Shown one piece after another: positions 28,958 through 57,541 of a DNA stretch of 64,000 nucleotides. The number at the start of each line of letters is the position of its first letter. The stretch's first letter is position 1. The translations under genes and the position numbers were made by a program. This stretch comes from Candidatus Omnitrophota bacterium (GTDB lineage Bacteria > Omnitrophota > Gorgyraeia > B26-G9): positions 6,283-70,282 of the forward strand of contig JAZDHG010000034.1 in the NCBI GenBank assembly GCA_043806135.1, read 5' to 3'. Under the pieces are notes generated by a model that was given only the letters and a program-made list of their open reading frames with translations, was not told the DNA's origin and made no database searches.

Positions 28958-30421
28958 TTAAGAATCAGGCAAGAACAAAATCACATCGGCAATGTCTTCA
29001 GCCATAACCTGATATCCCTGCGCACGACAATGGGGATCGTTTCTATCGACAAAAAACATATCATACGGATATCTGCGCAGCAAATCCTTAAATATTGGTC
29101 TGTGATCAACCAGAAAAACTTCATTTGCCACTGCCGCTTCTTTTAGCTTTTCAGAAAGTTCTTGAGGATATCCTGAGAATATTAAAGTGACCCGCCTGTT
29201 TTTGCAGATTCGGGCCATCTCATTTAAATTATCCAGCAGAATCCTATCTATTCTCTGTTTATTATAGATCAGTTCACTGTATAGCGAAAATCCGGTTATT
29301 CTGTCCCATGCTTTCATTAAATTCCTAAGGAAATAGTTCTGATTAAGCCTTTGCATTTTTACCTTGTATTTTGCCAGGTGATACCCGTTAAACGCATTGC
29401 TATCGTCAGTGTCCACAGTGCATGCCTTCCAGTAAAAACGTTTAGCCTGTTCATACTGCTTCTTCTGCATAAAAGATCCAGCAATCCATACGTATGATTT
29501 ACATAGTTTCGCTCTAAGTAAAACGTGATCAGGAAACTGTTCTAAAATACGCTCATAAAATTCAATCGCTTTTCCATAATCTGCCTGTTTAATAAATACA
29601 TCTTCTATTTCATTCAGAATGTTTGTTGCGAGGGGTTTTAAATAAAACGCCCTGAGTAGCATATCAATCGCTTCATCATGTCTACCCTGCAATTTATAAC
29701 AGCGCCCCTTTTCCAATAAGGCGGTTATATTTTCCGGTTCAGCTGCAAGTACATAATTATAAAGTTCATGCGCTTTTTGATACAGATTTTTCGCTCTAAA
29801 CTTGTTTCCTTGAGCGATATTTTTTTCACTATTCTGCTTTTCAGGCAAGGCAGCGCCTGTTTCATGTTTTTTCCCAAAAGAAAAACTCTTATTACTTTTT
29901 ATGAAACTGTTTTTAATATTATGAGTTAGTATAGCCGCCAAACGATATGTTTTAAGTTTTGAGATAAGACTCAACCATTTAACCTCAAGCGATGTCCCGT
30001 TTTTTGATACCTGTCTAAAATTCCAAACATCATTTTTACCAGCCATAACAATTGCAATACGCGGATTAACCGCATTTATAGATTCTTTCAGCTTAAGTAA
30101 AATCTCCGAAGAATTATAGCTGCAAACCCCATGGTTAAATACTTTAAACTCACCCTTCGCCTTGGAATTTTCGTTTAATATTTTTTCAAGCTGGACAGGA
30201 TAGCTTTTTGAAAAATCAGCGCCTAGCCCGTAAGTAAAGGAATCCCCCAGGCAAAGGACTCGACAAGAATCATCACTTAATCGCGCATAATTGTCTACCT
30301 TAAACTTCTTCGCATAAATACCGCTTGTTATTTGCAGGGAAAGTTCCAATAAAATTAAAACTAAAATAAAACTTAAAAAAACAAGCAATATGCGCTTTCC
30401 AGCTGTATTTTTAAATCTCAT
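28958..30421 (-). CDS. SGNH/GDSL hydrolase-family protein with internal TPR repeats
   Basis: CLGDSFTYGLG (GDSx block I) and AGKNDVWN (block III), TPR-like repeats mid-protein, and an N-terminal TM anchor. Confidence 0.55.
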   Translation of the reverse strand: MRFKNTAGKRILLVFLSFILVLILLELSLQITSGIYAKKFKVDNYARLSDDSCRVLCLGDSFTYGLGADFSKSYPVQLEKILNENSKAKGEFKVFNHGVCSYNSSEILLKLKESINAVNPRIAIVMAGKNDVWNFRQVSKNGTSLEVKWLSLISKLKTYRLAAILTHNIKNSFIKSNKSFSFGKKHETGAALPEKQNSEKNIAQGNKFRAKNLYQKAHELYNYVLAAEPENITALLEKGRCYKLQGRHDEAIDMLLRAFYLKPLATNILNEIEDVFIKQADYGKAIEFYERILEQFPDHVLLRAKLCKSYVWIAGSFMQKKQYEQAKRFYWKACTVDTDDSNAFNGYHLAKYKVKMQRLNQNYFLRNLMKAWDRITGFSLYSELIYNKQRIDRILLDNLNEMARICKNRRVTLIFSGYPQELSEKLKEAAVANEVFLVDHRPIFKDLLRRYPYDMFFVDRNDPHCRAQGYQVMAEDIADVILFLPDS

Positions 30422-30432
30422 AAAGGAACTCT

Positions 30433-31152
30433 TTATCCATCGGATATTGGTTTTCGCAAAACAGTAAAGGAAAAACTGGTCAGATACGCATTGGGAAAGC
30501 GCATTAAAAACCTTGTCGTCAGTTTATGCAGATCTCTTAATACCGGGATTTTTTTATAGTATTCATGCCCGAAAAACCCCCTGTATTCAATTATTTCAAA
30601 ACCGATCTTTTCAAGGTTATTGATCTGTTTTTTTATAGGACCGCGGCACCAGTTATAATGGGCAGAGAATCTTTTATGTTCGACTGGGTCGTTGCGCACA
30701 AAGAGATTAAAAATAAACTTCGCCAGAAACTCAGGCACAAACCGGTTGATAACAAAGGGCGGCGAATACAGCGTGGGGAAAAAGTGAAAAGCAATTCCGC
30801 CCGGCTTAAGCAGATTATATACATTGGTGTGAAAGATCTTAGCATCAAGCACATGTTCAGCAAGCATTTTAGAAAATATTAAGTCATATTTTTGCTCACC
30901 TTTAAGATCCGGATCGCAAATATCTGCCTCGACTTTTAAGTATTCTAAAGGCGCACGCTCAAGCTCAGCACGGGAGATATCCAAAACAGTATATTCAAGG
31001 TTCTGTTGTTCCTTTATCTGTTCAAGCGATAAAGCCGGAAATGCCCCGCCTCCTATCTCACAAACATGCTTTAGGCCATTATCTTTTATAAGCTCATTAA
31101 GACGGCTTAAATATTGCGGCCATGGGTCACTGGCATCAAAAATTATTTTCAC
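30433..31152 (-). CDS. Class I SAM-dependent methyltransferase
   Basis: VCEIGGGAFP glycine-rich SAM motif I plus LKPGGIAF motif. Confidence 0.65.
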   Translation of the reverse strand: MKIIFDASDPWPQYLSRLNELIKDNGLKHVCEIGGGAFPALSLEQIKEQQNLEYTVLDISRAELERAPLEYLKVEADICDPDLKGEQKYDLIFSKMLAEHVLDAKIFHTNVYNLLKPGGIAFHFFPTLYSPPFVINRFVPEFLAKFIFNLFVRNDPVEHKRFSAHYNWCRGPIKKQINNLEKIGFEIIEYRGFFGHEYYKKIPVLRDLHKLTTRFLMRFPNAYLTSFSFTVLRKPISDG

Positions 31153-31174: not shown

Positions 31175-32314
31175 TTAGCGCACTTTTTTCCAAAAAGGTT
31201 TTTGCCTCATAAACATGCCCTCAATGGTGCCGATCAAAAAAGCATAGTTAAAAACAACAAAGAAAAAAGGCATCCTGAGAACTTTTTGGAATTTATTATC
31301 GGCTTTTTTAATAAAAATACCGCTAAACAAAGCTAAAACATAAAACCACAACTGCATATATAAAACTGCCTGATAAAAAATATGTTCTGTAGATAATTTA
31401 AAGGAGCTGATAAATAGCAAAATCAAAAAATATGGAGAAAACCATCTGAAAAGCTTGTTAGAAATAACCTGGAACATAAGAAACCAGCGGAATTTGAGCA
31501 GCATTTGCCAAAGCAGGATAAAAGAGCTTTTGAAAAACCAGGAGACGATCCTTCTTTTCCTGCGGATTTCCGCTAAAAAATCGGTTGAGGCTTTTTCGTA
31601 TGATATGGCCTCAGGTTCAAACACCATGGCAAAGCCTTTGATACGGATACTTATAGCCAGCTCAAAATCATCCCCTCTATCAGGAGTGATGGGAAAATAT
31701 AATTCTTTTCTGATAGCCAGCATGGATCCGTCGGCACCGACTATGGCAAGCTGATTTGTATTGGCTCGTCTTAGCATACTCTCGTATTTTTTAAAAATCG
31801 ATTCCCCCTCACTTATTGAGGATTTATCCGGATTGGTTATAATCAGGTTTCCCAAAACCCCTCCGATACGCTTATCATTAAAATTCCGCACAAGCTTTTT
31901 TATAGCCTGCGGATCATAAATCGCATTGGCATCTGAGAACAATATTATCTGCCCTTTAGTTTTGGGAACAACCCCATAAAGCATCCTGCTTTTTCCTCTG
32001 CGTTCTTTAAAGCTGTAAAGCACCACTCCTTTGTCATTAAACTTTCGCACAATATCATTAGTCCCGTCATTTGATTCAGATACGACTACGATCTCAAGAG
32101 AATCTTTAGGATAATCAAGGCCAAGGGAATTCTCCAGTTTCTGGGCTATCACGTCTTGCTCGTTATAAGCCGGTATTAATAATGTGACTATCGGAAAAAT
32201 TTCTTTTTTATCTATCTTTTTGGCGAAGATTTTTCCAAGTAAGATACTCAACCCCAGATATCCGAAATAAGTATAAAACAAAGATATCAAAGAAAAATAA
32301 AATAATATTCTCAT
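31175..32314 (-). CDS. Family-2 glycosyltransferase (membrane-anchored)
   Basis: LLIPAYNEQDVI GT-A N-terminal motif, a DxD region, and N- and C-terminal TM helices. Confidence 0.7.
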   Translation of the reverse strand: MRILFYFSLISLFYTYFGYLGLSILLGKIFAKKIDKKEIFPIVTLLIPAYNEQDVIAQKLENSLGLDYPKDSLEIVVVSESNDGTNDIVRKFNDKGVVLYSFKERRGKSRMLYGVVPKTKGQIILFSDANAIYDPQAIKKLVRNFNDKRIGGVLGNLIITNPDKSSISEGESIFKKYESMLRRANTNQLAIVGADGSMLAIRKELYFPITPDRGDDFELAISIRIKGFAMVFEPEAISYEKASTDFLAEIRRKRRIVSWFFKSSFILLWQMLLKFRWFLMFQVISNKLFRWFSPYFLILLFISSFKLSTEHIFYQAVLYMQLWFYVLALFSGIFIKKADNKFQKVLRMPFFFVVFNYAFLIGTIEGMFMRQKPFWKKVR

Positions 32315-32535: not shown

Positions 32536-33990
32536 CTACTTCTTAAAACTTCCTCTTAATAAAAATTTTTTAAATCTATACATGGACATAATTGTCCGTT
32601 TTGCCTCAACAGGATTCAATATAATCTGTTTTATCTTGTACCAAAGGTATCGGAAACTAAGGTAATAATTCCTGCGGCTTGCGTCGCACCATTGCACAAG
32701 CTGTTTGGAGCTCAAATTAGGCAGATCTAAAACACAGTTATGCAATCCTTCTTTGGTAAGCCAATCTGAAAAATCATTACTCTTAAGAATATTATTCTCT
32801 TTTGCCCAATCATAGGCCCTGGTGCCCGGATAAGCCATCAACGGAAAAAACTGTACAGTATCCGGCATAAAGCGTTTGGCCATGGCAAATGTTTTGTCTA
32901 AAGTCTCTTGCGTTTCACCCGGGTTGCCGGCCATAAAGGCCGCATGCAGGAGTAATCCGGCCTTTTTGGTATCTTTAAAAAACTCCTCCTGACGCTCTGA
33001 CTGTGCGCCTTTATCAATATTATCCAATATCTGCTGGTCAGCGCTTTCAAAACCGATAATGATCAGGCGGCATCCGGCTTTTTTCATCAGCTTCATGGTA
33101 TCCAAGTCTAAATCCGCGCGCACATTGGCATTCCACTTGAGCTTAATATTTTTTTGAATAAGCAGCTCGCATATCCGGCGTACCCGGTTTTTATCAACAG
33201 AAAAGGTGTCATCTTCAATAACCACTTCTCTTACTTCAGGCAGGTTCTCCTGAACATAGATAAATTCATCGACAACATTTTCCGGGCTTCTTGTTCTGTA
33301 AGTATTGCCGTGTATAGTCTGCGGATAAACGCAAAAAAAACATCTAAAAGGGCACCCTCGTGCTGTAAATATCTGCACCATGGGGTAATCCGAGGCGGCA
33401 AAGAAATAATTCTTGATATTTAAATGTTTTTTATACACACTGCTTACAAAAGGGAGATCATCAAGCTCCTTTATTTTAGGCCGTTCTTCATTATTAATAA
33501 TTTTCCCGTTTTTACGGAAGGTTATTCCTAATACTGTATTCAAATCCCCCTTTTCCTGCAAAGTTTTAGCCAGATCAGCAACAGTATAATCATATTCCCC
33601 TCGGGCGACTGCATCGATATTTTCATCTAACGCAAGCGATTCTTCCGGCATTGCCGATACATGCGTTCCCACAAGCGTAATAAAACTATCCGCAAGCATT
33701 TTCTTTAAAGCTGCTGAAAAAGACACATCATTATAAATACTCGGTGTAGAAGTATCTACAACGATCAGTCCCGGATTAAAATCAAGCGCAATTCTCATAA
33801 CCTGATCTTTGTTAATACCCTGTGCAGGTGCATCGATCAGTTTCACATCAAAGCCGCGCTGCTCTAATACACCCGCAGCATAGGCAAGCCATACCGGATA
33901 ATACAAGGTTCCGCTTTTAGTAACCGCAGGGCTTCTCTGCGAGCGGGAAAACCGGGGTAAAAAAGGCGGATTTAAAAGCAGTACTTTCAT
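32536..33990 (-). CDS. B12-binding-domain radical SAM enzyme (class B)
   Basis: N-terminal KVLLLNPP... cobalamin-binding Rossmann domain, radical-SAM cysteine triad CPFRCFFC (CxxxCxxC). 484 aa. Confidence 0.8.
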   Translation of the reverse strand: MKVLLLNPPFLPRFSRSQRSPAVTKSGTLYYPVWLAYAAGVLEQRGFDVKLIDAPAQGINKDQVMRIALDFNPGLIVVDTSTPSIYNDVSFSAALKKMLADSFITLVGTHVSAMPEESLALDENIDAVARGEYDYTVADLAKTLQEKGDLNTVLGITFRKNGKIINNEERPKIKELDDLPFVSSVYKKHLNIKNYFFAASDYPMVQIFTARGCPFRCFFCVYPQTIHGNTYRTRSPENVVDEFIYVQENLPEVREVVIEDDTFSVDKNRVRRICELLIQKNIKLKWNANVRADLDLDTMKLMKKAGCRLIIIGFESADQQILDNIDKGAQSERQEEFFKDTKKAGLLLHAAFMAGNPGETQETLDKTFAMAKRFMPDTVQFFPLMAYPGTRAYDWAKENNILKSNDFSDWLTKEGLHNCVLDLPNLSSKQLVQWCDASRRNYYLSFRYLWYKIKQIILNPVEAKRTIMSMYRFKKFLLRGSFKK

Positions 33991-34004: not shown

Positions 34005-34372
34005 ATAATCCGCATACATAAGCTGGATTATACCTGATTACAACGATTATTAAAAGATTACAAAGATTAAACCATTAATCTCCGCACTTGGCAGCTTTTA
34101 TTGCCAAAGTTTATTAATAGCCCAACATTATATCCTGATGCTTTTAGACACGATATAAACTGAACTCCAAATACAACAGGAATATTGCGAGCTATGACCT
34201 TAAATTTAACACGCTCCACCTATCTCCCACAGCCCACCGCGTAGGTGGGATGTAGGTGGGAAGTGGCATTGTGCAGGAGATTATTTTTTCAGTGGAGGGA
34301 TCTCTCTCCTTAATCACTGTAATCTCCCCTCTAATCTATGCGATCAAGACATCCTGCTACCTTCCCGTCATA
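34005..34372 (-). pseudogene. Decayed GxxExxY cassette (copy B). Start and C-terminal regions are retained, and the central ~270 bp is replaced by ~110 bp carrying a REP-like palindrome.
   Basis: 34295-34370 aligns to 6721-6796 with the start codon changed from ATG to GTG, and 33991-34180 aligns to 6296-6480. The middle segment (34221-34262) contains a tcccac..cccacc-gcgta-ggtggg..gtgggaa nested inverted repeat. It overlaps the 3' end of the following radical SAM gene by about 15 bp. Confidence 0.55.
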
Positions 34373-35868
34373 GGATGTCTTAACATTTTTCTAACAGTCC
34401 CTTTAAACATATTAATAACATAAGACGGATCCTGAACAAAACGCTTTATTACTTTTACGTAAAAAGCGTGGGGATCTCTGAAAACAAGCATCATAAGAAA
34501 AACAAGCTTTTCTCTGGAAACCATTTTTTCAAGCTCAGCCGGAGTAAATTCAGGTGTAGATATCACTCCTTTTTTAACACCCAGAGAATTAATTTGAAAA
34601 TCTTTTACCAAGTAATTACCGTTAACGCACACATCATATAACCGCGTACCCGGATAAGGAGTCGCGATATAGTAAAGGACATTACTGACTTTTAAACCGC
34701 GGCCGAATTTAAATGTCTTCTTTATCTGCTCTTTAGTTTCCCCGGGAAACCCGATCACAAAGAAGGCGTCTGTTTCAAAACCGTATTTATGCGCAAGTGT
34801 TATCAAATGCTCGGCTTTTTTCAGGTCTAAGGGCTTGTTTATTATTTTATGCAGAACATCCTGATCTCCTGATTCAATGGCAAGACAAAGCCGGTAGCAG
34901 CCGCTTTCCTTCATTTTAAGCAGCATTGCCTCATCCATAGCCCATAGAGCAACACCGTTTGGCGTAGTCCAGAGCATTTCCAAATTAACTGAAATCATCA
35001 AATCGAAAATTTTCAGAGCCCGCTTTTTATCAAAGGTGAGGTTATCATCTTCAAACTGTATTTCCTTTACCCCATACTCTTGTTTTAAATGCTTTATTTC
35101 TTGAATTACATTCTCAGGAGACCTTGCCCTGAATTTCTTACCCCAAATAGGATGAATCGCGCAAAAAATACACTCAGCCGGACAACCGCGTGATGTGATC
35201 ATGGGTGTATTCGGAGAACGCCTGGTTGTTACGCCATGCGGCATATTGATTTTAAAATACTTTTCCATATTCAGTAAATGCCGGGCCGGAAACGGAAGTT
35301 CGTCCAAATTTTCAATAAATGTTGTTTTTTTGTTAATAATTATATCCTTGTTCTTTCGATAGCCAATGCCATCCACAAGGGAAAGATCCTTTCCCTCTTT
35401 TACGTGATCTAAAAGCTTAAGAACAGTATATTCACCTTCTCCCAACACCACATAATCAATATTTTCATCACCCAGCACCTGCTCTGCCTGAACACTCGGA
35501 TGAGCTCCGCCCATTATGGTTATCATTGCCTTGTTTACCTGTTTAGCCAGCTGTGCGACCTTATGAGCATTATGCGCCTGCATGGAAAACAAACAGGAAA
35601 TTCCTACAACATCAGGATTATACTCTAAAATTGCCTTTTCTATTTCCTTAAATGATAAACCATAGCGAAAGCGGTCTTTTCCCTCAAGGATTTGCGTATG
35701 CCAACCCTCAACTACGGCATCCAGGATCTTCACCTCATAATTACCCTCTAAAACAGCGGCAATATAGCCAAGCCCTAAAGGCGGCTGTATTTCTTTGGTG
35801 TAGCTTTTGGAAATAGTGCACGGGGGCTGGATTAATAGAATTTTTTTTATTTTTGTTTTTTGAATCAT
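34357..35868 (-). CDS. B12-binding-domain radical SAM enzyme (class B)
   Basis: KKILLIQPP N-terminus, CPAECIFC radical-SAM motif. The block SRGCP..C.FC...SPENV..EIK.L..E....I.FEDDNLTF.KKR is near-identical to that of the 45092-46573 paralog. Confidence 0.8.
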   Translation of the reverse strand: MIQKTKIKKILLIQPPCTISKSYTKEIQPPLGLGYIAAVLEGNYEVKILDAVVEGWHTQILEGKDRFRYGLSFKEIEKAILEYNPDVVGISCLFSMQAHNAHKVAQLAKQVNKAMITIMGGAHPSVQAEQVLGDENIDYVVLGEGEYTVLKLLDHVKEGKDLSLVDGIGYRKNKDIIINKKTTFIENLDELPFPARHLLNMEKYFKINMPHGVTTRRSPNTPMITSRGCPAECIFCAIHPIWGKKFRARSPENVIQEIKHLKQEYGVKEIQFEDDNLTFDKKRALKIFDLMISVNLEMLWTTPNGVALWAMDEAMLLKMKESGCYRLCLAIESGDQDVLHKIINKPLDLKKAEHLITLAHKYGFETDAFFVIGFPGETKEQIKKTFKFGRGLKVSNVLYYIATPYPGTRLYDVCVNGNYLVKDFQINSLGVKKGVISTPEFTPAELEKMVSREKLVFLMMLVFRDPHAFYVKVIKRFVQDPSYVINMFKGTVRKMLRHPMTGR

Positions 35869-36632
35869 AAATACTGGTTCCCTTTTGAAGCCGGCTCAAG
35901 TAAAACCATCAGTGAGCAATTACCCAAGAATCTTGCTGTAAATTGCGGGAAGAATTTAAAGAATACTTTCCTCAAAGGCTGGGCTATTAACCTTCTGGGC
36001 AAACTTTTTAGTTTATAATCCGCGCTGACATCAGAACACGTTAGAATCATGTTCTTTATATTAAAACCGCAATCATTAAACAGATCAAGTGCGCTATTTT
36101 TATTATAAAAATTCAAGTGTCCAACTGTATCGGTAAAATGTTTTTTTAGCCCCCTGATATTTACCTCAAAATTATCCTCAAGCGGTAAATGGCAGATCGC
36201 ATAATCACAAACTTCCCTGATCTTTTGCAAAAAAGCCGCCGGATCTTCCATGTGCTCAAGGATATCGATCAAAAGAGCCACAGAAATCCGGTTCTTGTTT
36301 TCCTTATAATTTTTTGCATCAAAATAAGTACAACGAAAATCAGCTTGAGGAAAATTATCCTTAGCCCTGCCGATAATCTCTGAAGAGATATCATAACCAA
36401 TAGGATTTACTGCGATATTTTTAATTTTCAAATATTCGAATACGCGTTTGAGTATTTCAGCCGTGCCGCAGCCGATATCTATAAGGTCGACCTCTGGTTT
36501 TAGTTTTTTCAGAAAATCATCGTTCATCAGGATAATAATCTTCTGGGCCTTCCACTTTGCGTCCTCTTTATGCCAGGAGGGATTTTTCAGGCTATAATCC
36601 CCGCTGTTATACATACTCTTATCTTTGCTCAT
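35865..36632 (-). CDS. Class I SAM-dependent methyltransferase
   Basis: DIGCGTAEIL motif I. 4-nt overlap with the downstream radical SAM gene. Confidence 0.65.
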   Translation of the reverse strand: MSKDKSMYNSGDYSLKNPSWHKEDAKWKAQKIIILMNDDFLKKLKPEVDLIDIGCGTAEILKRVFEYLKIKNIAVNPIGYDISSEIIGRAKDNFPQADFRCTYFDAKNYKENKNRISVALLIDILEHMEDPAAFLQKIREVCDYAICHLPLEDNFEVNIRGLKKHFTDTVGHLNFYNKNSALDLFNDCGFNIKNMILTCSDVSADYKLKSLPRRLIAQPLRKVFFKFFPQFTARFLGNCSLMVLLEPASKGNQYL

Positions 36633-37774
36633 AACACACCTTCAATAATACTTTTTATCTTAATAAGGTAATCCTTATGGTTAAACCGTTCTTTTATCTT
36701 CTTCTGGGCATTACCCGCAAGCTTCATCCGCTCATTGTTGTTTTCCATCAACTGCAGCATTTTTTCCGAAAGCTCATGATAATCACAGGCACTATAAAGC
36801 AATCCATCAACGCCTTGCTTTATTATTTCCGCCGGACCGCCGAAATTCGTAGCAATGACCGCAGGGCCTGAGGCCATGGCCTGAAGTAAAGATGTCGGAC
36901 ATGGATCAGGTTTTTTAGAAGCAATAACAAAGATATCGGTTTCACGCATTATATCCGGGACATCATTTCTGTAGCCGGTGAATATAACATTTTTTTCAAG
37001 GCCCAATTCCTGCACCATATCCATCAGATACTGTTTATAGCTCTGTCCCTTTCCTTCATAAAGCACATCACCGACTATAAGAAGTTTTACATTAGGAACG
37101 CTCTCCACAACTATTTGCGCCGCTCTGATAAAGTCATCTGCACATTTCCACTCGACAAGCAAACCAACCATGGAAATAACGATATTATCTGATATACCGA
37201 AACTTTTTCTTATAGGACCTAACCTGTTGCCGGGATGATAGACTTGCTCATCAATACAATTATACAAGATTTTAGTTTTCGTCCATAGAGCAGCCAGGGG
37301 AAGCCTTGCCGCCTCAGATACGACTATTACTTTTTTTACTATTGGGTTGCGTCCGAAATAATCACACAGTCTCCTGGATATACCCTTATCAAAAATGCTG
37401 TGCACATGCCAGATAAGAGGTATTTTTTTTATTGACGCGGCAATAGTAGCAAAAACAAAGGTACGCGCGGCATTGGCATAGATCAGGTCAGGTTTTTCTT
37501 TGCTCATGATTGAACATAGCCTTAAGGTAAGCCAAGGAAGTCGTATCATATAGCCTAAGACATCCCCAAGAGTCTTTTTACCAAGAGAATAATATCCGAG
37601 CGGCAATTTCCGGTAAGTGATATTGCGGCTATCAAGCTCTTTTGTCAATTCGCCTTTTCCCGGGACAACTACACAGAAATCATAATCATTTTTTAAACCG
37701 TCAATCAATGAAAGCAATACTTTCTGTCCACCGGAAACTTTGGCGTATTGTTCTAAGAATAGAATTTTTCTCAT
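36629..37774 (-). CDS. Family-4 (GT-B) glycosyltransferase
   Basis: C-terminal GT4 signature with acidic E..E-type residues (..IFVIASKKPDPCPTSLLQAMASGPAVIATNFGG..). Confidence 0.7.
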   Translation of the reverse strand: MRKILFLEQYAKVSGGQKVLLSLIDGLKNDYDFCVVVPGKGELTKELDSRNITYRKLPLGYYSLGKKTLGDVLGYMIRLPWLTLRLCSIMSKEKPDLIYANAARTFVFATIAASIKKIPLIWHVHSIFDKGISRRLCDYFGRNPIVKKVIVVSEAARLPLAALWTKTKILYNCIDEQVYHPGNRLGPIRKSFGISDNIVISMVGLLVEWKCADDFIRAAQIVVESVPNVKLLIVGDVLYEGKGQSYKQYLMDMVQELGLEKNVIFTGYRNDVPDIMRETDIFVIASKKPDPCPTSLLQAMASGPAVIATNFGGPAEIIKQGVDGLLYSACDYHELSEKMLQLMENNNERMKLAGNAQKKIKERFNHKDYLIKIKSIIEGVL

Positions 37775-49684: not shown

Positions 49685-50095
49685 TTAGCGGAATAAGGTA
49701 ATTTTTCTAATAAAAAAATTCCAAAAGTATACCAAGACTGTTGCTATGAATTTTGAATACAAATAATGCAGCTTTCCACGCTCGGTAAAAATCCACATGA
49801 ATAATTCATTTAAAGCTATCCCAACGATCCCGATACAAGCGAAGATAATCCATTCCATCAGCCTTGATTTGATTAAGTGTTTTTCAAAAACCCAGGTTAT
49901 GCTTAAATAATAATTGACAGATAGCCCGATTAAAAAGGCTATCGCGGCAGATACTAAGTAATATATATTGAAATATTCCGTCAAAACAAACAATGAGCCG
50001 AAATCGAATATAAACGCAATCCCTCCCACAAAAGTATATCGAAATAATTGAATTGATATATTGTTTGTTTTGGTTTTTAGTAACAGTTTTATCAT
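49685..50095 (-). CDS. GtrA-family membrane protein
   Basis: 136 aa with 4 TM helices. YTFVGGIAFIFDFGSLFVLTEYF. Confidence 0.65.
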   Translation of the reverse strand: MIKLLLKTKTNNISIQLFRYTFVGGIAFIFDFGSLFVLTEYFNIYYLVSAAIAFLIGLSVNYYLSITWVFEKHLIKSRLMEWIIFACIGIVGIALNELFMWIFTERGKLHYLYSKFIATVLVYFWNFFIRKITLFR

Positions 50096-50167: not shown

Positions 50168-50947
50168 TTAATAAAACTTAGCCTTAAGAAGTAAAGCTAT
50201 GTCATAAATTCCTTTAAGAAACTTCGCTATCGTTTTAGGACAATGTTTGTATATTCTTTTTAAAAACCGCAGATAAGGAATTTGCTGAATATCCTGAACA
50301 TCAATTTTAAAATTTGCTTCCTTAAACGGTAATTTTCTGGCAATAAAAACGTCTATATGTCCCTGTTTTAATCCCAAAGGAATCACGATCCGGTTCTTTA
50401 AAGGGGTTTTTGCCTTACCGCCCGGGCCGGCAAGAACATCAAAACAATGCTTTTCAAACATGATCCGCATCTGTTTATGTGTCAAAACGCTGTGATGATA
50501 GAATTCTTTCGCCCACTCCATTGAGGGCATAGTTAAAACTATTACCCCGTCTTTTTTAAGAGTCCGGTAAAATTCCCGCAATACAATGGCCGGCGCGATA
50601 GCATGCTCAAAAACATCTTTAGCAACAATACAGTCAAACTTTTCCTTTTCATAAGGCAATTCATGCATATCACCATAATCAATATCAAGAGTGTAGCGTT
50701 TTTTGGCATTTTCAACTTCTAATTTATTGCGGGTAATTCCCCAAACATGAAATCCGTGCTCTTTGAGCCATTTAACCTCTGTCCCGTCCCCGCAGCCGAC
50801 CACCAGCACATCCTTCGCCTCTTTGGGCACAAAAGCCAAGACCCGGGCAGAAAGGGCTGCTTTTTCCTCATAAGGGAGATCAATGCTTTCCTGACCGCAC
50901 GCATACGGCTCCTCGCCCAAATGATTCTGCCAAATTTTGTTATCCAT
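50168..50947 (-). CDS. Class I SAM-dependent methyltransferase
   Basis: VLVVGCGDGTEV motif I, KKDGVIVLTMP. Confidence 0.65.
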   Translation of the reverse strand: MDNKIWQNHLGEEPYACGQESIDLPYEEKAALSARVLAFVPKEAKDVLVVGCGDGTEVKWLKEHGFHVWGITRNKLEVENAKKRYTLDIDYGDMHELPYEKEKFDCIVAKDVFEHAIAPAIVLREFYRTLKKDGVIVLTMPSMEWAKEFYHHSVLTHKQMRIMFEKHCFDVLAGPGGKAKTPLKNRIVIPLGLKQGHIDVFIARKLPFKEANFKIDVQDIQQIPYLRFLKRIYKHCPKTIAKFLKGIYDIALLLKAKFY

Positions 50948-51075: not shown

Positions 51076-52503
51076 TTATATGTTCAATGACACTTTATTT
51101 TTGCTTATTAAAATTTGCTTTGCAGTTATCATCAAAATAAAATAAATACTCAGTCCGCCAAAGCTCGACAACAGTAAAATATTTAGATCTGTAGTTATAA
51201 TAAAATATTTAATAAGGCTAAGTACCCCTGCAATTAGTCCTGATATTAGAAATGCAGGTGAAATTGCTTGAACTAACATCTTATCGTCTAAATTAATTAA
51301 TTTATTACAAACATGAAGGGAGAAAGGGACCCAGCCCAATGTATATAGTGCATAAAAAGAGGCAACTCCCTTTATCCCCCATTTTAACCCTATTAGAATA
51401 CACCCGGTAACAATAAATGTTCCCACTGCCTGCAGCTTAAACTGCGTATCACTTTTTCCTTGAGACCTAAATATATTTCCCACTGTCGTCTCTATAGATT
51501 GAAACATGCCGCAAAAACATAAAATTCTTAACACCGGGATAACCGGCTCCCATTGAAAACCAAACACTACCCTAATAAATTCAGGAGCTACTACGAACAA
51601 GCCCAGCATCAAAGGAAAAGTAACCAGTGAAATCGCCTTTACCATTTTCAAGTAGTTATTTCGCACTTTCTCTAAATCATGCTGAATCTTTGAGAAAGCC
51701 GGGAACATAACTCCCTCAATGACATGAGAAACATTCTGTAAAGGATATAACATGATTTTGTAAGCTAAGGTATAAAAGCCTAATGCTCCCGCACCAAGAA
51801 ATTTACCGACCAGAAGATAATCTACATTTCTGGCAAAATACTCAACAATATTAAACCCTGTTATATTCGCGCTAAAATTGAAAATTTCCTTAATAGCATC
51901 TTTTGAAAATAAAAACGAAGGGCGCCATGACGAGAAAATCCATAATAGACAAGTCTTAACAAAAATAAAACTCATAAAATGCAAAACCAGGCTCCATACC
52001 CCCATTCCCTGCAAAGCCGCATAAATCCCGATTATGCCGGCCAGTACCACAGCGGTGCTCTCGGCTATTGAGATCGCTCTAAAATCCATCTTCTTTTGTA
52101 ACTTCGCTGACTGGACAATTGAGAAGGAGGATATAAAACAGCTTATAGATATTACTCTGATTAGATCAATCAAAATTGGTTTTGCATAAAAACTTGCTAT
52201 AAGCGGAGCGCTTAACCAGAAGATTACGACAAGAATTATACCGGCAAATATATTCAGCCAAAAAGCGGAAGAATAATGTTCCTCATTTACTTTTTCTCTT
52301 TGGATTAAAGCTGCGCTTACCCCTAACTCTCCAAACATTAACGCAAATCCAAAATAGACTGTAACCATTCCAATAAGACCAAAATCATACGGTGTTAACA
52401 AGCGGGCAAGGATAGCGAGAATAACAAACTGACTAATTTGCCTAAATATACGAGTTCCAAAAGACCAGCCAAGGCCCTGAATAGTTTTTTTTCTTAAACT
52501 CAT
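51076..52503 (-). CDS. wzx: Wzx-type flippase (MOP superfamily polysaccharide transporter)
   Basis: About 14 TM helices. N-terminus MSLRKKTIQGLGWSFGTRIFRQISQFVILAILARLLTP is typical of Wzx/RfbX. The start is taken at the internal ATG, 7 codons inside the track ORF. Confidence 0.7.
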   Translation of the reverse strand: MSLRKKTIQGLGWSFGTRIFRQISQFVILAILARLLTPYDFGLIGMVTVYFGFALMFGELGVSAALIQREKVNEEHYSSAFWLNIFAGIILVVIFWLSAPLIASFYAKPILIDLIRVISISCFISSFSIVQSAKLQKKMDFRAISIAESTAVVLAGIIGIYAALQGMGVWSLVLHFMSFIFVKTCLLWIFSSWRPSFLFSKDAIKEIFNFSANITGFNIVEYFARNVDYLLVGKFLGAGALGFYTLAYKIMLYPLQNVSHVIEGVMFPAFSKIQHDLEKVRNNYLKMVKAISLVTFPLMLGLFVVAPEFIRVVFGFQWEPVIPVLRILCFCGMFQSIETTVGNIFRSQGKSDTQFKLQAVGTFIVTGCILIGLKWGIKGVASFYALYTLGWVPFSLHVCNKLINLDDKMLVQAISPAFLISGLIAGVLSLIKYFIITTDLNILLLSSFGGLSIYFILMITAKQILISKNKVSLNI

Positions 52504-52547
52504 TAGTTTAACTCCGATATGCAATATTAAAAAACCTATATTCCATT

Positions 52548-54044
52548 TTAGACTTTAAAATTCAAAACATATTTGACCCGAACCCATAATTCCCTTGGAC
52601 TCTTATAGTGCTCTTTAAGTTCAAGAAATAACTTATACGGATTAAGCATCTTCAGCCTTTGCTTTTTCCGGTTGTGCCGCAAAAATTCTTTTTCAGTACT
52701 TTCAATAATATCTTGCAAACGATCTTTTGGTAATTTATTCGTTAAAAACATACCCGGACTCTGATGAAAAAAAGTGCTCCAATTTATGTTTTTTGGGATA
52801 AGACCATCCTGCTTATACATCTCATAGAGCTCAGTTGCGGGATAAGGCGTGGAAATACTGTAAACTGCAAATTGAGGATCCAGTTCTTTCATAAAATCAA
52901 CTGTCTGCTTTATCTCATCTTCACCTTCCCATGGGAATCCAATCATGAAAAATATAGCCGTTTCCATGCGATTTTTCTTGCAAATCTTCACTGCCCTGCG
53001 TATTTGGTCCAAGGTAATGTTCTTTTTTATCTTTTTTAGAGTAAGTTCGCTGCCTGATTCCGCACCAAGCAAAATTTTTGAACAGCCTGCTTTTTTCATA
53101 ATTTTTAACAAATCATCTGTTAATAAATCAACTCTTGTTTCGCATCCCCAGTTTATCCTGATATTTTTGGATAATAAAAGAGTACATATCTGTTTAACAT
53201 AAGAGATATTAAGTGAAAAACTATCATCTTCAAAATGAAAATAAGCCGGGTTATAGCTGGTATTAATGCGCTCAATCTCATTGATAACATTTTCAGGGGA
53301 TCTATACCTGACTTTCTTTGACCATATAGCATTTGAAGCGCAAAAAATACAATTATAGGGACAGCCGCGGCTTGCAAAAATACGGCTGAAGTCATCAGGA
53401 AGCATTTTCTCCTTATTTATAATAAGATAATTCACCGGATGAGGAAGCTCATCTAAATCAGTGACCAACTCTCTGGGAGCATTTCTAACTATCTTGCCAT
53501 TTACCTTATGTACAATGCCCCTGATCTGCGTCAAATCCATTTTTCCTTCAAGAATTGCCCGGGTGAGGTCTAAAAAACTATACTCTCCTTCTCCAAACAC
53601 TAAAAAATCAAAACAATCATTATTAATAGTTTCCTCAGGCAAGAGCGTGGGATGAAGTCCGCCAACTACAACCTTAATTTCCGGATTGATCCTTTTTACA
53701 AGTTTACCTAGGGTTAGAGAGGCCTGGTATTTTGGTGTTAGAACCGTAATCCCAACAATTTTGGGGTTATATTCCCTGATTACTGCTTCTGCTTCCTTCC
53801 AAATCGGCGCATCTATACTGGACACCGTCTCTAAATACTTGGCATAATTTTTTGTTGTGGAAAAAGCATCGACAGGATAGGCACCTCTTTGCAAATCCGC
53901 GTTATATACGCGAGACTGGATACCATTTTTTTCAAGGACAGCAGCAAGGCTGCATAATCCTATAGGACGAGTAGATTTTTGCTGGCCAAAAAATCGATAC
54001 CAAGGAGGGTCAATAAGTAGAACATCTAGATTTTCTTTAGCCAT
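52548..54044 (-). CDS. B12-binding-domain radical SAM enzyme (class B)
   Basis: CPYNCIFC, N-terminal VLLIDPP B12 domain. The start is taken at MAKEN. Confidence 0.8.
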   Translation of the reverse strand: MAKENLDVLLIDPPWYRFFGQQKSTRPIGLCSLAAVLEKNGIQSRVYNADLQRGAYPVDAFSTTKNYAKYLETVSSIDAPIWKEAEAVIREYNPKIVGITVLTPKYQASLTLGKLVKRINPEIKVVVGGLHPTLLPEETINNDCFDFLVFGEGEYSFLDLTRAILEGKMDLTQIRGIVHKVNGKIVRNAPRELVTDLDELPHPVNYLIINKEKMLPDDFSRIFASRGCPYNCIFCASNAIWSKKVRYRSPENVINEIERINTSYNPAYFHFEDDSFSLNISYVKQICTLLLSKNIRINWGCETRVDLLTDDLLKIMKKAGCSKILLGAESGSELTLKKIKKNITLDQIRRAVKICKKNRMETAIFFMIGFPWEGEDEIKQTVDFMKELDPQFAVYSISTPYPATELYEMYKQDGLIPKNINWSTFFHQSPGMFLTNKLPKDRLQDIIESTEKEFLRHNRKKQRLKMLNPYKLFLELKEHYKSPRELWVRVKYVLNFKV

Positions 54045-54220
54045 AATACATACCATTCCCGCGCTTATATGTTCTTTAAGCCCACAAAACAGTTCCGACC
54101 TTAATAATTCAGCATAACTCTTTTTATTATTATAACATACGATTAAATCAACATCAATATCGGTTATGTACTTAAGACAAATAACTTCACGGAATCAATA
54201 AGCTTTTTTCTTATGCTTTA

Positions 54221-55018
54221 TTAAAAAGACTTTATTTTTCCAAGGAACATATTTTTAAAATAAGTGAGCTGCTGCAGAAAGTAAAGATAGGGGCTGAAAA
54301 CCGATTTATATGAGGGGGCATTTTCTCTCTTATCGCTAATATACAATGCTTTTTTCTTAGTATTGGCTCTAGCGATTTGGATAGAGAATGGGGTCATTAA
54401 AACTATTTTTAAATCAAATAACATTGATCTGTTTTGAATATAAAAGAGGTCGTGTTCTACTCTTTTAATAATTGATGTATTAGCGCGATACCCATTAACC
54501 TGTGCCCATCCGGTAAGCCCTGCTTTAACAGTATGACGCAAATCATAATTCTTAATTGTCTTCTTAAACCGCTCAATAAAATATGGTCTTTCCGGTCTGG
54601 GGCCTACTAAACTCATATCTCCCCGCAGCACATTCACCAACTGGGGAAGCTCGTCAATAAGCAGGATTCTCAATAACCGTCCGAATCTAGTGCTTCTGGG
54701 ATCATCGGTCTTTCCCCACTCAGGGCCTTTGTCGTTTTCCACCTTATCCGGCATTGAACGGAATTTATACAACCAGAATACTCTCCCGCCCTTTGTGCAT
54801 CTTTCTTGCTTATAAATAACCGGGCCCGGAGAGCTTAACTTAACCATTATTGCCACGAACAACATTAAAGGGGAACTTAGTATCAATAACAATAACGATC
54901 CCGCTATATCCATTACCCTTTTTATAAAAGCATAAGAGAAGATTAAAGAACATATCTCCGCAGCTTCGTTCAAATATGATTGTCTATTTGCTAGATTTAA
55001 AGTATGATTAATAAACAT
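54221..55018 (-). CDS. Polyprenyl-phosphate glycosyl-1-phosphate transferase (PglC/WbaP-C-like priming enzyme)
   Basis: Single N-terminal TM, LYKFRSM ... DELPQL ... GDMSLVGPRP signature of bacterial sugar transferases. Confidence 0.8.
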   Translation of the reverse strand: MFINHTLNLANRQSYLNEAAEICSLIFSYAFIKRVMDIAGSLLLLILSSPLMLFVAIMVKLSSPGPVIYKQERCTKGGRVFWLYKFRSMPDKVENDKGPEWGKTDDPRSTRFGRLLRILLIDELPQLVNVLRGDMSLVGPRPERPYFIERFKKTIKNYDLRHTVKAGLTGWAQVNGYRANTSIIKRVEHDLFYIQNRSMLFDLKIVLMTPFSIQIARANTKKKALYISDKRENAPSYKSVFSPYLYFLQQLTYFKNMFLGKIKSF

Positions 55019-55052: not shown

Positions 55053-56717
55053 TTAGGCCATTTCTTTATTAATATCCAACTCCAGATCATAAAACTTAAC
55101 CCCTGCAGCGTATCCAGGGTTACCGTCATTTACTGCGACAGGAGATGTCCAAACTACTACCCCGTTACCCACAATAGGCTTCATTTTATCACGATGTATT
55201 TCAAATTCAAGAATATTTTTCGGCTGTAATTTTTCGGTTGTGACAATCTTCATTCCTGAACGCCCGACATCCTTACTCCAGCATATATGTTTCTTTTTTT
55301 GTCCGACAACTGTACATGTAACTTTATTAGATGTTTTTGAACGCTGTGACGATCTCCTTTCTTCAAATTTCCCAAAATCATGTTCGGATTGCACTTCATG
55401 CACAGAAGAAACAGAAAAAACAAGGGCCATGGCAAACCCAATCGTTAACCCGACAAGTACCCCCAACAAAAGATTAGTCAATAAATTTGGTTTAACCGGA
55501 GAATCCGGAACATCGGCAAGTTCTATTATTTCTGCATCAGGAAGCATATTGGTTCTCTGTTTTAAAATTTTTAACTCTTGGAGCTTTGCCTTAAGATCAG
55601 CATAAACTTCTCTTTTCATTTCAATATCACGATTGAGCCGGGCTAATTTAGGCTGGGTTTGAAGCGCTTTATTTAGCCTATTGGTTTGTTTTTCGTGATT
55701 TTCAATCAATGCTTCTTTTTTTCCAATTAAAGATTTTTTTTCTATCACTAAAGATTCTATCTCTGCCTTTACAATCTTATCGCTTTCCTTAGCCAGATCG
55801 ATTGTTAATTTAGCAATCGCCGCCTGAGCAACCATTACATCCGGATGATTTAAATTAAATTCTCCCATTAAAACATCCATCTTGAGATCAGCTAAACGGA
55901 TTTGTGATTTTAAGTCGTTTATAAGTTCATTATCTGTAAGAAATTTCAGGTTTAAATTTTCAGAATCATTTTTCTCCACCCGCCCTTTAATTTCAACGAT
56001 TTTAGTATTTAACATCTCTATATCAGCGTTAACAGCAGCTACATGCATGTCTAAATCAGCATATTTTTGCAGACTCAAAACTATATCCGACCCAAAGAGC
56101 ATAATCATATTATCTTGACTAGCTATTTCATTCAACTCCTCCTCAACAGCGTTAAAATCCTTTTTTGCCGTTTCGATCTCTTTTTCCAAGGCGGAAATAA
56201 TTCGCTCGACAGTTTCACTTTTTAATTTTACTCTGTTTTCAATATAGGTTTCTGCTATCGCATTTGCTAACATTGAGGCAAACAAAGGGTTCGGCTGCTG
56301 TACCTGAAGCTCTAAAACATTTGTGCCTTCTAATAGAGTAAGACTGATTTTTTTCTGTAACATACTCTTATTTAATGAGTTGGGATCCAAACCTTTAAAT
56401 TCCTCTTTCGAAAAATCTATTTTTTGCAGTGCCTTGTCTATAACAGATCTGCTCTTTATAATTTCAGCTTGTGAATTAGCAAATTGCCATCCGGTCTCAT
56501 AAGAGGGAAACTCATCTTTAGGATTGAGTTTCTCTTCCCTAACCAATATTTTTGTACTTACCTCATATATGGGTTTCACAAATACTTTAGTAGCAAAAAA
56601 AGCAGCCGCCAGTGTTATGATAATTGAGCTAGCAATAATCAGTTTACCTCTTCTAATAACATTCAGGATATCGATTGAATCAATATCATTTTGTATTAAA
56701 TTTGAATTTTTCATCAT
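55053..56717 (-). CDS. Polysaccharide chain-length determinant protein (Wzz/GumC-like, no kinase domain) with a C-terminal PilZ-like domain
   Basis: N-terminal Wzz region plus TM1, a long coiled-coil periplasmic region, and TM2 (LLTNLLLGVLVGLTIGFAMALVF). The roughly 100-aa cytoplasmic tail has RRSSQR (RxxxR) and a degenerate DVGRSG, followed by beta-strand patterning reminiscent of PilZ. Confidence 0.7.
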   Translation of the reverse strand: MMKNSNLIQNDIDSIDILNVIRRGKLIIASSIIITLAAAFFATKVFVKPIYEVSTKILVREEKLNPKDEFPSYETGWQFANSQAEIIKSRSVIDKALQKIDFSKEEFKGLDPNSLNKSMLQKKISLTLLEGTNVLELQVQQPNPLFASMLANAIAETYIENRVKLKSETVERIISALEKEIETAKKDFNAVEEELNEIASQDNMIMLFGSDIVLSLQKYADLDMHVAAVNADIEMLNTKIVEIKGRVEKNDSENLNLKFLTDNELINDLKSQIRLADLKMDVLMGEFNLNHPDVMVAQAAIAKLTIDLAKESDKIVKAEIESLVIEKKSLIGKKEALIENHEKQTNRLNKALQTQPKLARLNRDIEMKREVYADLKAKLQELKILKQRTNMLPDAEIIELADVPDSPVKPNLLTNLLLGVLVGLTIGFAMALVFSVSSVHEVQSEHDFGKFEERRSSQRSKTSNKVTCTVVGQKKKHICWSKDVGRSGMKIVTTEKLQPKNILEFEIHRDKMKPIVGNGVVVWTSPVAVNDGNPGYAAGVKFYDLELDINKEMA

Positions 56718-56740
56718 ATAATCACCCTATCTTTTTATTA

Positions 56741-57541
56741 TTAATCTTCAGCAATTTTATAGATTAAATAAGTATCCGCAATGGGTTTGATGGTTCTTCC
56801 GAAAAAGGAGAACAGGTCATCCATTTTACCTATAAAAGTTTTCGGCACATAAACAATATCTCCCGGCTGAAGAATTACATCATTTCTTACTTTTCCTTCT
56901 TTAAGCACGCTTTTTAAATCCGCCGTGAATATATGCGGAACTTTATCATATGGATTACGTATAATAACCGTGTTTTCTAAGTATGAATATTGGGCATACC
57001 CTCCGGATTTGCCTATAGCTTCCAATGCTGTCAGACGCCCCGAAATATTATACATTCCCGGATTTCTAACCTCTCCAAGCACAAGAATCTTTTTACTTCC
57101 GATTTCATTGACTATTACCGTTACCTGGGGATCAAGAATATATTTGTCCTGGAGCCTTGCTGCAATAACTTTGCTTAATTTTTCCGGGCTCAGTCCGCCG
57201 GCTTTTATTTCACCAGCAAGAGGGAGAGATATTCTCCCGTCAGGGCGTATGGTAATTGTTCTGCTTAGATCTTCATTGCGCCATACAGATACCTCTATTA
57301 CATCACCGGATTCAAGCATATACTCAGGATCAGTACCTTTTTCAAAAATTGATTCCTGCTCTTTTGCTATAGACTCTGCTTTCTCAATACTATAGTTTTG
57401 AGCAATATCCTGTTCGCGGTTAACTATATTTGTTGTCGCTGAATATGCTATAACTGAAAAAACAAGCATGCTGGCAAAAGCTAATAAAACTAATAAATTA
57501 ATTAAAACTGCCTTGATAAAAAGTTTTGATCGTTTTTTCAT
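56741..57541 (-). CDS. wza: Wza-type outer-membrane polysaccharide export protein (OPX; Poly_export + SLBB)
   Basis: Signal peptide. GDVIEVSVW..ISLPLAGEIKAGGLSPEKL (Poly_export motif) and an SLBB-like C-terminus. Confidence 0.75.
   Translation of the reverse strand: MKKRSKLFIKAVLINLLVLLAFASMLVFSVIAYSATTNIVNREQDIAQNYSIEKAESIAKEQESIFEKGTDPEYMLESGDVIEVSVWRNEDLSRTITIRPDGRISLPLAGEIKAGGLSPEKLSKVIAARLQDKYILDPQVTVIVNEIGSKKILVLGEVRNPGMYNISGRLTALEAIGKSGGYAQYSYLENTVIIRNPYDKVPHIFTADLKSVLKEGKVRNDVILQPGDIVYVPKTFIGKMDDLFSFFGRTIKPIADTYLIYKIAED

Follow-up and report, generated by a model that had tools for sequence, protein, structure and literature searches.

What do radical S-adenosylmethionine (SAM) enzymes with a cobalamin-binding domain do in a gene cluster for a surface polysaccharide? 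This question is raised by a 64,000-nucleotide (nt) stretch of contig JAZDHG010000034.1 from a Candidatus Omnitrophota bacterium, called the window below, always in the sense of the whole stretch that was analysed. At 28958-57541, 23 minus-strand open reading frames (ORFs), all in the same direction and encoding 136-554 amino acids (aa), include five class-B radical SAM genes (rSAM1 to rSAM5) and four class I SAM-dependent methyltransferase genes (MT1 to MT4), set among genes for glycan assembly and export (Table 1). An earlier examination of this DNA (the original prediction) had put the number of genes at about 26, which was too high, and its ORF coordinates and strand were all borne out. 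With moderate probability, this is a Wzx/Wzy surface-glycan locus, for an exopolysaccharide (EPS) or a capsule-like polymer, in which the radical SAM enzymes and methyltransferases tailor a lipid-linked repeat unit by mixed chemistry.

Five ancient radical SAM paralogs

A hidden Markov model scan with PF02310 and PF04055 found both domains in all five radical SAM proteins, as the original prediction had claimed. PF02310 scores were 61-85 bits (cutoff for B12-binding calls, 32.1 bits), PF04055 scores were 73-88 bits, and one CxxxCxxC motif is present per protein. None of the five lacks the cysteine triad or the B12 domain, a weakness that the original prediction had considered. The motifs GG.H, GEGE, SRGCP..C..C, EDD, ESG and G.PGE are common to all five. 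Pairwise identity among them is 24-37%, whereas each shares 60-88% identity with its own orthologue elsewhere, and they are therefore ancient paralogs.

A recent duplication had been proposed for rSAM2 (34357) and rSAM4 (45092) on the basis of a block, SRGCP...FEDDNLTF, that was described as near-identical. This proposal did not hold. The two proteins are 36.6% identical overall; within the block 33 of 54 aa (61%) and 102 of 162 nt are identical, with third codon positions saturated (22/54 identical). In addition, each has separate orthologues in other genomes (60-82% identity).

A complete Wzx/Wzy pathway

The genes for a small phosphoglycosyltransferase (PGT), Wzx, Wzy, a polysaccharide co-polymerase (PCP) and an outer-membrane polysaccharide export protein (OPX) occur together, each above its Pfam gathering threshold, and the pathway set is complete. 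The full pathway that had been predicted, consisting of Wza, a chain-length protein, PGT, Wzx and Wzy, is thus supported by Pfam. Systems of the Group 1 capsule or colanic-acid type (Wzx/Wzy-Wza-Wzc) are similar in their PGT, Wzx, Wzy, GNVR-bearing PCP and OPX. However, the PCP of the window is kinase-less: the bacterial tyrosine kinase (P-loop) domain of PCP-2a (Wzc-type) proteins is absent, and the protein has Wzz, GNVR and PilZ domains alone. The OPX is also short (266 aa), and no separate tyrosine kinase was found in the locus. By contrast, the PCP of another locus (L095) carries CbiA/ParA/AAA_31 domains. The tailoring set of five radical SAM enzymes and four methyltransferases has no parallel among characterised Wzx/Wzy systems. 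An XrtA/PEP-CTERM exopolysaccharide system was considered and rejected, the scores being below cutoff (TIGR03027, 136.5 vs 180; TIGR03013, 234.8 vs 393; TIGR03007, 59.6 vs 279), and no exosortase was found among the window ORFs scanned.

Independently of the tailoring chemistry, the product may be a lipopolysaccharide (LPS) O-antigen or core-linked glycan and not free EPS or capsule. The Wzy_C domain is also found in O-antigen ligases, the organism is diderm (LptE, BamD and a YhdP-like protein are encoded in the window), and rSAM1 orthologues in two other loci (L040 and L006) adjoin genes for a GT9 heptosyltransferase and an LpxL-like lipid A acyltransferase. A dedicated OPX (Wza) and a GNVR-bearing PCP are, however, typical of EPS or capsule export, and the PilZ fusion of the PCP suggests biofilm-type regulation; we regard an LPS-linked product as rather unlikely.

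Conservation of the locus

The gene order is syntenic in at least eight other contigs attributed to Omnitrophota, with 53-88% aa identity (57-82% for the rSAM2 orthologues). Since the DUF212/YkuD/AccA/BioY flank is common to the window and its relatives, the locus lies at a conserved chromosomal site. Two of the relatives, L007 (JAGLMC010000109.1) and L009 (CAYTGV010000013.1), were deposited as Alphaproteobacteria and Planctomycetia, respectively. Their loci share 63-83% aa identity with that of the window, and the taxon labels are probably binning errors.

The number of radical SAM genes is graded, with two in L004, four in L008, and five in L009 and the window. L004 contains Wzx-GT2b-GT4c-Wzy-GT4a-rSAM2-rSAM1-GT2a together with PGT, Wzz-PilZ and Wza (GT2 and GT4 denoting glycosyltransferase families), and no methyltransferase. 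At the other end, GT4b together with a cassette of GT-C-like, UDP-galactopyranose mutase (UGM)-like and GtrA genes was observed in the window alone. Because the loci form a graded series from the two-rSAM L004 upward, rSAM2-rSAM1-GT2a is, as judged from gene content, the ancestral tailoring core, and rSAM3, rSAM4, rSAM5, MT1-MT4, GT4b and the cassette are lineage-specific additions.

Scanning metagenomes with an alignment of rSAM1 brought up over 545 relatives; 80 loci (49-83% identity) were kept. Of the 56 loci that extend far enough downstream, 36 have a GT2 gene directly after the rSAM1 orthologue, often with a PGT gene next, and of the 34 loci spanning 12 kb or more, 28 have recognisable glycan genes. 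The number of class-B radical SAM genes per locus was one (17 loci), two (7), three (6), four (3) or five (1). More distant rSAM2 homologues, at about 50% identity, likewise have GT2, Bac_transf, Wzy_C, GT9, epimerase, YdjC and carbamoyltransferase genes as neighbours. In L040 (1-14702), an rSAM1 orthologue and its GT2 gene adjoin three further B12-radical SAM genes, a plain radical SAM gene, the cobalamin-synthesis gene cbiJ, and genes for a GT9 heptosyltransferase, DUF362 and an LpxL-like acyltransferase, which suggests that an independent lineage puts the same module to LPS-core-linked use. Multi-rSAM envelope-glycan loci recur among environmental anaerobes and are undescribed; the window is at the rich end of them but is not unique.

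Gene fusions and the probable timing of tailoring

Relatives encode GT4a and MT2 as a single in-frame protein of 634-637 aa (L001, 8085-9998; L003, 7963-9867). In the window (35865-37774, minus strand), two separate genes meet precisely where the domains adjoin, and their stop and start codons overlap as ATGA. A second fusion, the 709-aa protein P0324 (L096, 693-2822), joins an rSAM1-like part (56% identity) to a C-terminal class I methyltransferase that is distantly related to MT3 and MT4, and its gene is followed by another B12-radical SAM gene and then a GT2 gene. P0324 is known from a single 5.9-kb ENA contig, and an assembly artefact is possible. The two fusions tie these enzymes to one substrate. 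The four methyltransferases that had been predicted at 30433, 35865, 44311 and 50168 are all supported by Pfam. An obligate coupling of methyltransferase to radical SAM enzyme (CysS-like extension of an O-methyl group) was rejected for the core, since rSAM1 and rSAM2 occur in L004 although it lacks methyltransferases, and L003 and L008 likewise keep rSAM3 without MT3. Such coupling is possible for the accessory pairs, given the P0324 fusion.

No transmembrane (TM) or signal segments were predicted in the radical SAM enzymes or methyltransferases, whereas Wzx, Wzy, PCP, OPX and the GT-C-like protein are located in the membrane or exported. A Pfam scan between 28958 and 57541 found no epimerase, dehydratase or aminotransferase, and no enzyme modifying nucleoside diphosphate (NDP)-sugars. 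The fusions, the predicted solubility of the tailoring enzymes and the lack of NDP-sugar modifying enzymes in the locus together argue that the lipid-linked repeat unit is tailored on the cytoplasmic face, prior to flipping. In the proposed pathway, the small PGT would start the repeat unit on polyprenyl phosphate, and up to five GT2/GT4 enzymes would lengthen it on the cytoplasmic face. The five soluble class-B-type radical SAM enzymes and four methyltransferases would then modify the lipid-linked oligosaccharide (less likely the sugar precursors). After flipping by Wzx and polymerisation by Wzy, the kinase-less PCP and the short OPX would export the product.

A different explanation is that the tailoring enzymes act on a non-glycan molecule (a lipid, hopanoid, peptide or cofactor) and are merely embedded in a glycan locus. 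Class-B radical SAM enzymes do modify lipids, peptides and tetrapyrroles, and the HpnJ, BchE, ladderane and ribosomally synthesised and post-translationally modified peptide models all match significantly. However, the radical SAM and methyltransferase genes are interleaved with glycosyltransferase, Wzx and Wzy genes, with minimal gaps or overlaps between them, in an order kept across genomes. The GT4::MT fusion, the recurrence of rSAM1-GT2-PGT adjacency in unrelated metagenomes, and the lack of hopanoid, precursor-peptide and tetrapyrrole genes in the locus (Pfam scan) point the same way, and true HpnJ is restricted to genomes with SHC and HpnH (PMC12324291). A non-glycan substrate is thus highly improbable.

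Which chemistry?

The chemistry of tailoring was approached through family affinity, with NCBIfam model scores as a proxy for a tree containing GenK, Fom3, HpnP, TsrM and CysS. The best model for rSAM1 was HpnJ (TIGR03471; 428.5 bits, cutoff 577.6), with residues 1-477 aligned to positions 1-467 of the 472 in the model. The same model scored 207 for rSAM2, 194 for rSAM5, 155 for rSAM4 and 138 for rSAM3, for which it was also the best. The SD1168 family (NF038361, cutoff 575) was best for rSAM2 (339.1) and rSAM4 (200.7), and BchE (TIGR02026, cutoff 481) was best for rSAM5 (196).

A true HpnJ was rejected for rSAM1, which lies below the cutoff; SHC, HpnH, HpnI and HpnK are absent from the locus and the window, and no database relative among the 120 nearest to rSAM1 bears the name HpnJ. 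Since all equivalog cutoffs are missed and true HpnJ is confined to genomes with SHC and HpnH, none of the five enzymes is an orthologue of a hopanoid or lipid enzyme, and the change of interpretation that orthology to HpnP-like enzymes would bring does not arise. BchE, the Mg-protoporphyrin cyclase, was rejected on its score, and photosynthesis genes are absent from the window. JGI frequently misnames rSAM1 and rSAM2 homologues, either as 'anaerobic Mg-protoporphyrin cyclase' or as 'YgiQ', and the cyclase names are over-annotations.

HpnJ acts on a lipid-anchored hexosamine and has been proposed to contract the lipid-bound glucosamine ring (PMC9204698); in a sequence-similarity network it co-clusters with Fom3 and the sugar C-methylase MoeK5 (PMC9204698). 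It resembles rSAM1 in the full-length model match, in the combination of a B12 domain with a radical SAM core, and in the adjacent GT2 gene, and differs in that rSAM1 scores below the cutoff, lacks SHC/HpnH/HpnI/HpnK partners, is paired with a GT2a that is not HpnI-like, and stands in a Wzx/Wzy context. GT2a plus rSAM1 as an HpnI/HpnJ pair was therefore rejected and is kept as a mechanistic analogy only. By that analogy, rSAM1 would probably carry out a non-methylating rearrangement of the sugar added by GT2a. A bolder form of the idea is that the rSAM1-GT2 pair, and perhaps other paralogs, perform, on a lipid-linked glycan, non-methylating carbon-skeleton chemistry (for example an HpnJ-type contraction of hexosamine to a carbocyclic cyclitol) or CysS-like iterative radical methylation of methoxy or methyl groups giving branched alkyls. 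In that case environmental anaerobes would carry polysaccharides with carbasugar or branched-alkyl units that are not known from any bacterial polymer, and this diversification of glycans would be widespread and cobalamin-demanding. We consider this bolder form tentative and rather improbable.

At the opposite end, all five enzymes could be methylcobalamin-dependent C- or P-methyltransferases that, with four O-methyltransferases, make the repeat unit very rich in methyl groups. The majority of characterised class-B radical SAM enzymes are methylases (PMC12931638), and carbons of sugars are methylated by GenK, GenD1, Fms7 and MoeK5 (PMC12931638, PMC9204698). The SD1168 methylase family is the best match of rSAM2 and rSAM4, and the methyltransferase genes are interleaved with the radical SAM genes, once even fused in an rSAM1-like::MT protein. 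Against this, rSAM1, rSAM3 and rSAM5 are nearest to the non-methylases HpnJ and BchE, the minimal L004 locus has two core radical SAM genes with no methyltransferase, and the absence of phosphoenolpyruvate mutase and phosphonate genes from the locus (Pfam scan) counts against P-methylation. SD1168 itself (Shewanella denitrificans), although the top curated match of rSAM2 and rSAM4 and able to transfer a methyl group in vitro, says little on function because its own physiological substrate is not established (PMC9204698), and the rSAM2 and rSAM4 scores are far under 575. The heavily C-methylated repeat unit of the original prediction is accordingly not implied by family, and methylation by all five enzymes is unlikely. 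Methylase function is plausible for some paralogs, as judged from the family matches, and is not implied for all. GenK, GenD1, Fms7 and MoeK5 are similar in that they are class-B enzymes modifying unactivated sugar carbons of glycosylated intermediates, but they belong to small-molecule aminoglycoside and moenomycin pathways, with one or two per cluster, no Wzx/Wzy/OPX and no polymer; this comparison is by description, not by sequence. In the preferred reading, with mixed chemistry, some paralogs would probably C-methylate unactivated sugar carbons, as GenK and MoeK5 do.

The nearest solved structure of rSAM1, rSAM2 and rSAM5 is AprD4 (6fd2; 60-92 bits), followed by 9ccb, CysS, TokK, OxsB and TsrM, all remote. 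AprD4 acts on an aminoglycoside sugar. The radical SAM enzymes could then be cobalamin-independent, AprD4-like dehydratases, epimerases or oxidoreductases that make deoxy or epimerised sugars, on NDP-sugars or on the oligosaccharide, and replace the NDP-sugar dehydratase and epimerase genes that the locus lacks. However, the AprD4 model of NCBIfam scored 64-117 bits, under the HpnJ, SD1168 and BchE models for every paralog, and the PDB is without structures of those three families. The PF02310 matches are strong (61-85 bits), and RmlA and RmlC elsewhere in the window indicate ordinary NDP-sugar routes in the organism. This explanation is distinctly unlikely.

Several results weigh against tailoring of a lipid-linked repeat unit by these enzymes. 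AprD4, a sugar diol-dehydratase, is cobalamin-independent despite its B12-like domain, and searches of the 64-kb window for a cobalamin riboswitch and for genes of cobalamin uptake or synthesis found none. None of the five radical SAM proteins reaches a curated NCBIfam equivalog cutoff, and the chemistry is therefore extrapolated. The HpnI/J/K analogy is weakened in that GT2a has weak PgaC/NodC-like matches and does not match HpnI, and that no HpnK-type deacetylase was found in the locus. As for operon status, the numbers of sigma-70 promoters and terminators found by scanning the locus match shuffled expectation, and therefore say nothing on operon structure. Finally, literature searches found no characterised class-B radical SAM enzyme acting on a polysaccharide or lipid-linked oligosaccharide. 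Reviews of the class do not mention polysaccharides (PMC9204698, PMC12931638), in agreement with the original prediction that the repeat unit would have no characterised counterpart, and a 2026 preprint that mentions hypervariable polysaccharide cassettes in Omnitrophota does not cover radical SAM or methyltransferase enzymology. What the analysis shows is the gene content, the domain architecture, the age of the paralogs, the conserved synteny and the gene fusions; the substrates, timing, cobalamin use and chemistry given here are inferred.

A putative periplasmic side-branch cassette

The GtrA protein and the FAD oxidoreductase of the original prediction are supported by Pfam. The oxidoreductase (48101-49675) belongs to a family named merely 'hypothetical protein' (NF005546), and among solved structures it comes nearest to the UDP-galactopyranose mutases of eukaryote type (about 46 bits, E about 2e-11). 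The two predicted GT2 genes were confirmed, whereas three GT4 genes were found and not four. The ORF at 46639-48168, which the original prediction did not include, encodes a GT-C-like membrane protein that was unmatched in Pfam (also at E<=10) and NCBIfam and has no similarity to the neighbouring PMT_2 protein. Its AlphaFold2 model (pLDDT 92.9, pTM 0.92) was compared with the PDB by Foldseek. The top 14 matches were all GT-C proteins (ArnT, AftD, AftB, STT3, DPY19, EmbA/B), although the matches were weak (E 1.5e-3 to 0.18, TM-score 0.3-0.5). A loop motif, HHEPWRDE, is invariant (residues H28-E29-W31-D33-E34). On the model, the protein is likely a periplasmic-face glycosyltransferase.

The three-gene cassette was not found in the relatives L001, L008 and L009. 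Because a GtrA protein, a UGM-like flavoenzyme and a GT-C-like fold occur together, the cassette points to a module that builds a side branch in the periplasm, perhaps with a furanose; in the proposed pathway it would provide a probable furanose side branch in the periplasm. The cassette resembles the known GtrA/GtrB/Gtr(type), ArnT and mycobacterial Aft-Emb systems in bringing together a GtrA-family protein, a GT-C-like membrane protein and a sugar-isomerising UGM-like flavoenzyme. In contrast to those systems, the GT-C-like protein of the window is in no Pfam family, and its fold matches are weak (E >= 1.5e-3).

Elements related to cyclic di-GMP

The PilZ domain of the PCP has RSSQR at residue 455 and a second motif, DVGRSG, that is non-canonical relative to (D/N)xSxxG. 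The PCP-PilZ fusion is kept in L008 and L009 and in the distant syntenic loci L004, L018 and L020, and no description of it was found in a single search of the literature. It would probably put the export step under cyclic di-GMP (c-di-GMP) control.

A c-di-GMP-I riboswitch (RF01051) was found at 61076-61145 on the minus strand (41.7 bits; Rfam gathering score 35), about 100 nt upstream of a gene (58006-60978, minus strand) for a 990-aa secreted protein with a signal peptide. This gene lies upstream of wza on the same strand, and the protein has helical repeats of about 30 residues, for which Pfam gives only spurious UBA-like matches. Neither the riboswitch nor the 990-aa protein was found in the fetched relatives. 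Between this gene and wza, a 76-aa ORF (57546-57776, minus strand) has a signal peptide and a 'NGHFEDGNLSSWE' start, and looks like a truncated protein of the carbohydrate-binding-module type. A second PilZ protein is encoded at 6853-8181 (minus strand), with an N-terminal PilZ domain (RQFAR, NLSAAG) fused to an ATPase of the T2SSE/type IV pilus type. The 64 kb thus hold three c-di-GMP-related elements: the riboswitch, PCP-PilZ and PilZ-ATPase.

Extent and surroundings of the locus

The intergenic junctions range from -68 to +366 nt and the majority are below 25 nt, some of them overlapping, as the original prediction had described. The GC content of the locus (0.34-0.40) is a little under that of the flanks. 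The widest gap, 366 nt between rSAM2 and rSAM1 (33991-34356, minus strand), holds a short ORF remnant ending '...KASGYNVGLLINFGNKSCQVRRLMV*', which we take to resemble the C-terminus of GxxExxY-type proteins, and GC-rich inverted repeats lie upstream of it. The remnant and repeats are likely an insertion scar. An IS200-like Y1 transposase homologue is present in the upstream flank (18621-19310, minus strand).

The domains predicted for the GDSL/TPR gene at the low-coordinate end were confirmed, but its membership in the locus is doubtful: the gene is absent from L001, and in L003, L015 and L017 it is on the opposite strand with about 30% identity. Judged from this comparison, it is probably outside the glycan system. 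A PMT_2-type GT-C protein is encoded on the opposite strand (27313-28938, plus strand) and directly abuts the end of the locus. The other flanking genes are those of an ordinary diderm chromosome (Table 1).

Table 1. Genes of the locus and its flanks, with the evidence for each assignment (scores in bits, mostly from Pfam)
Feature	Position	Strand	Evidence and remarks
Exported GDSL/SGNH hydrolase with TPR	28958..30421	-	Lipase_GDSL_2 44.5 + TPR; N-terminal signal or TM segment
MT1, class I SAM methyltransferase	30433..31152	-	Methyltransf_12 37.3; orthologues (63-73% identity) after GT2a in L001, L003
GT2a	31175..32314	-	Glyco_tranf_2_3 80; two C-terminal TM helices (317-364); conserved partner of rSAM1
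rSAM1, core, HpnJ-like	32536..33990	-	PF02310 63, PF04055 72.7; CPFRCFFC at residue 213
rSAM2, core	34357..35868	-	PF02310 85.2, PF04055 82.5; CPAECIFC at residue 229
MT2, class I SAM methyltransferase	35865..36632	-	Methyltransf_23 51.8; translationally coupled to GT4a (ATGA overlap)
GT4a	36629..37774	-	Glycos_transf_1 128
GT4b, accessory	37779..38972	-	Glycos_transf_1 99.7; in L003, L008, L010; not in L001, L009, L004
Wzy-type polymerase	38994..40487	-	Wzy_C PF04932 73.5; about 11 TM segments; core gene
GT4c, GT-B (GT4-like)	40510..41679	-	Glyco_trans_1_4 43.2; TuaH-like 114.6; core gene
GT2b	41676..42689	-	Glycos_transf_2 90.5; two C-terminal TM helices (244-288); core, in all relatives including L004
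rSAM3	42693..44210	-	PF02310 62.2, PF04055 74.1; CPYNCPYC at residue 197; C-terminal hydrophobic tail (451-469)
MT3, class I SAM methyltransferase, accessory	44311..45078	-	Methyltransf_11 55.6; in L001, L009; not in L003, L008
rSAM4	45092..46573	-	PF02310 61.3, PF04055 88; CPYDCTFC at residue 220
Polytopic GT-C-like membrane protein	46639..48168	-	About 9 TM segments; probable start M19 at 48114, as in NCBI model
UGM-like flavoenzyme, PRK07208 family	48101..49675	-	NF005546 890 (cutoff 418); Amino_oxidase, NAD_binding_8
GtrA-family small membrane protein	49685..50095	-	PF04138 78.6; handles polyprenyl-P-sugars
MT4, class I SAM methyltransferase	50168..50947	-	Methyltransf_11 68.9; adjoins rSAM4 in L001, L008, L009
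Wzx-type flippase	51076..52524	-	Polysacc_synt_3 321; about 12 TM segments
rSAM5, accessory	52548..54056	-	PF02310 69.3, PF04055 87.6; CPYNCIFC at residue 232; in L009, not L008
Small PGT, initiating on polyprenyl phosphate	54221..55018	-	Bac_transf 217; TIGR03025 299.8 (cutoff 295.55)
PCP (Wzz + GNVR) with C-terminal PilZ	55053..56717	-	Wzz 52.5, GNVR 48.9, PilZ 34.7; two TM segments
OPX, short Wza type, 266 aa	56741..57541	-	Poly_export 89 + SLBB_2/SLBB; N-terminal hydrophobic segment
Flanking genes			RmlA/RmlC, MurJ, UvrC, HolA, LptE, BamD, YhdP-like, AccA, BioY, LysM-YkuD, DUF212, ComM

Implications

What would such a locus mean for the biology of these bacteria? Among uncharacterised enzyme groups, the class-B radical SAM enzymes are one of the largest, and their sugar substrates known so far are all small natural products. 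The window itself would appear, from its sequence, to add no unique mechanism, being one member of a widespread and uncharacterised family of multi-rSAM glycan loci. Within this family, the series from two to five radical SAM genes is a natural experiment for pairing each paralog with one modification, and rSAM1-GT2, as a compact pair of genes, lends itself to reconstitution in a heterologous host. If lipid-linked repeat units are tailored by these enzymes, this would be a new class of polysaccharide modification, with C-methyl, rearranged or carbocyclic sugars as possible products. It would then occur widely among uncultured anaerobes (Omnitrophota, Planctomycetota, Nitrospirota, Desulfobacterales, Patescibacteria and Chloroflexota), and the diversity of their cell surfaces would be linked to the availability of cobalamin.

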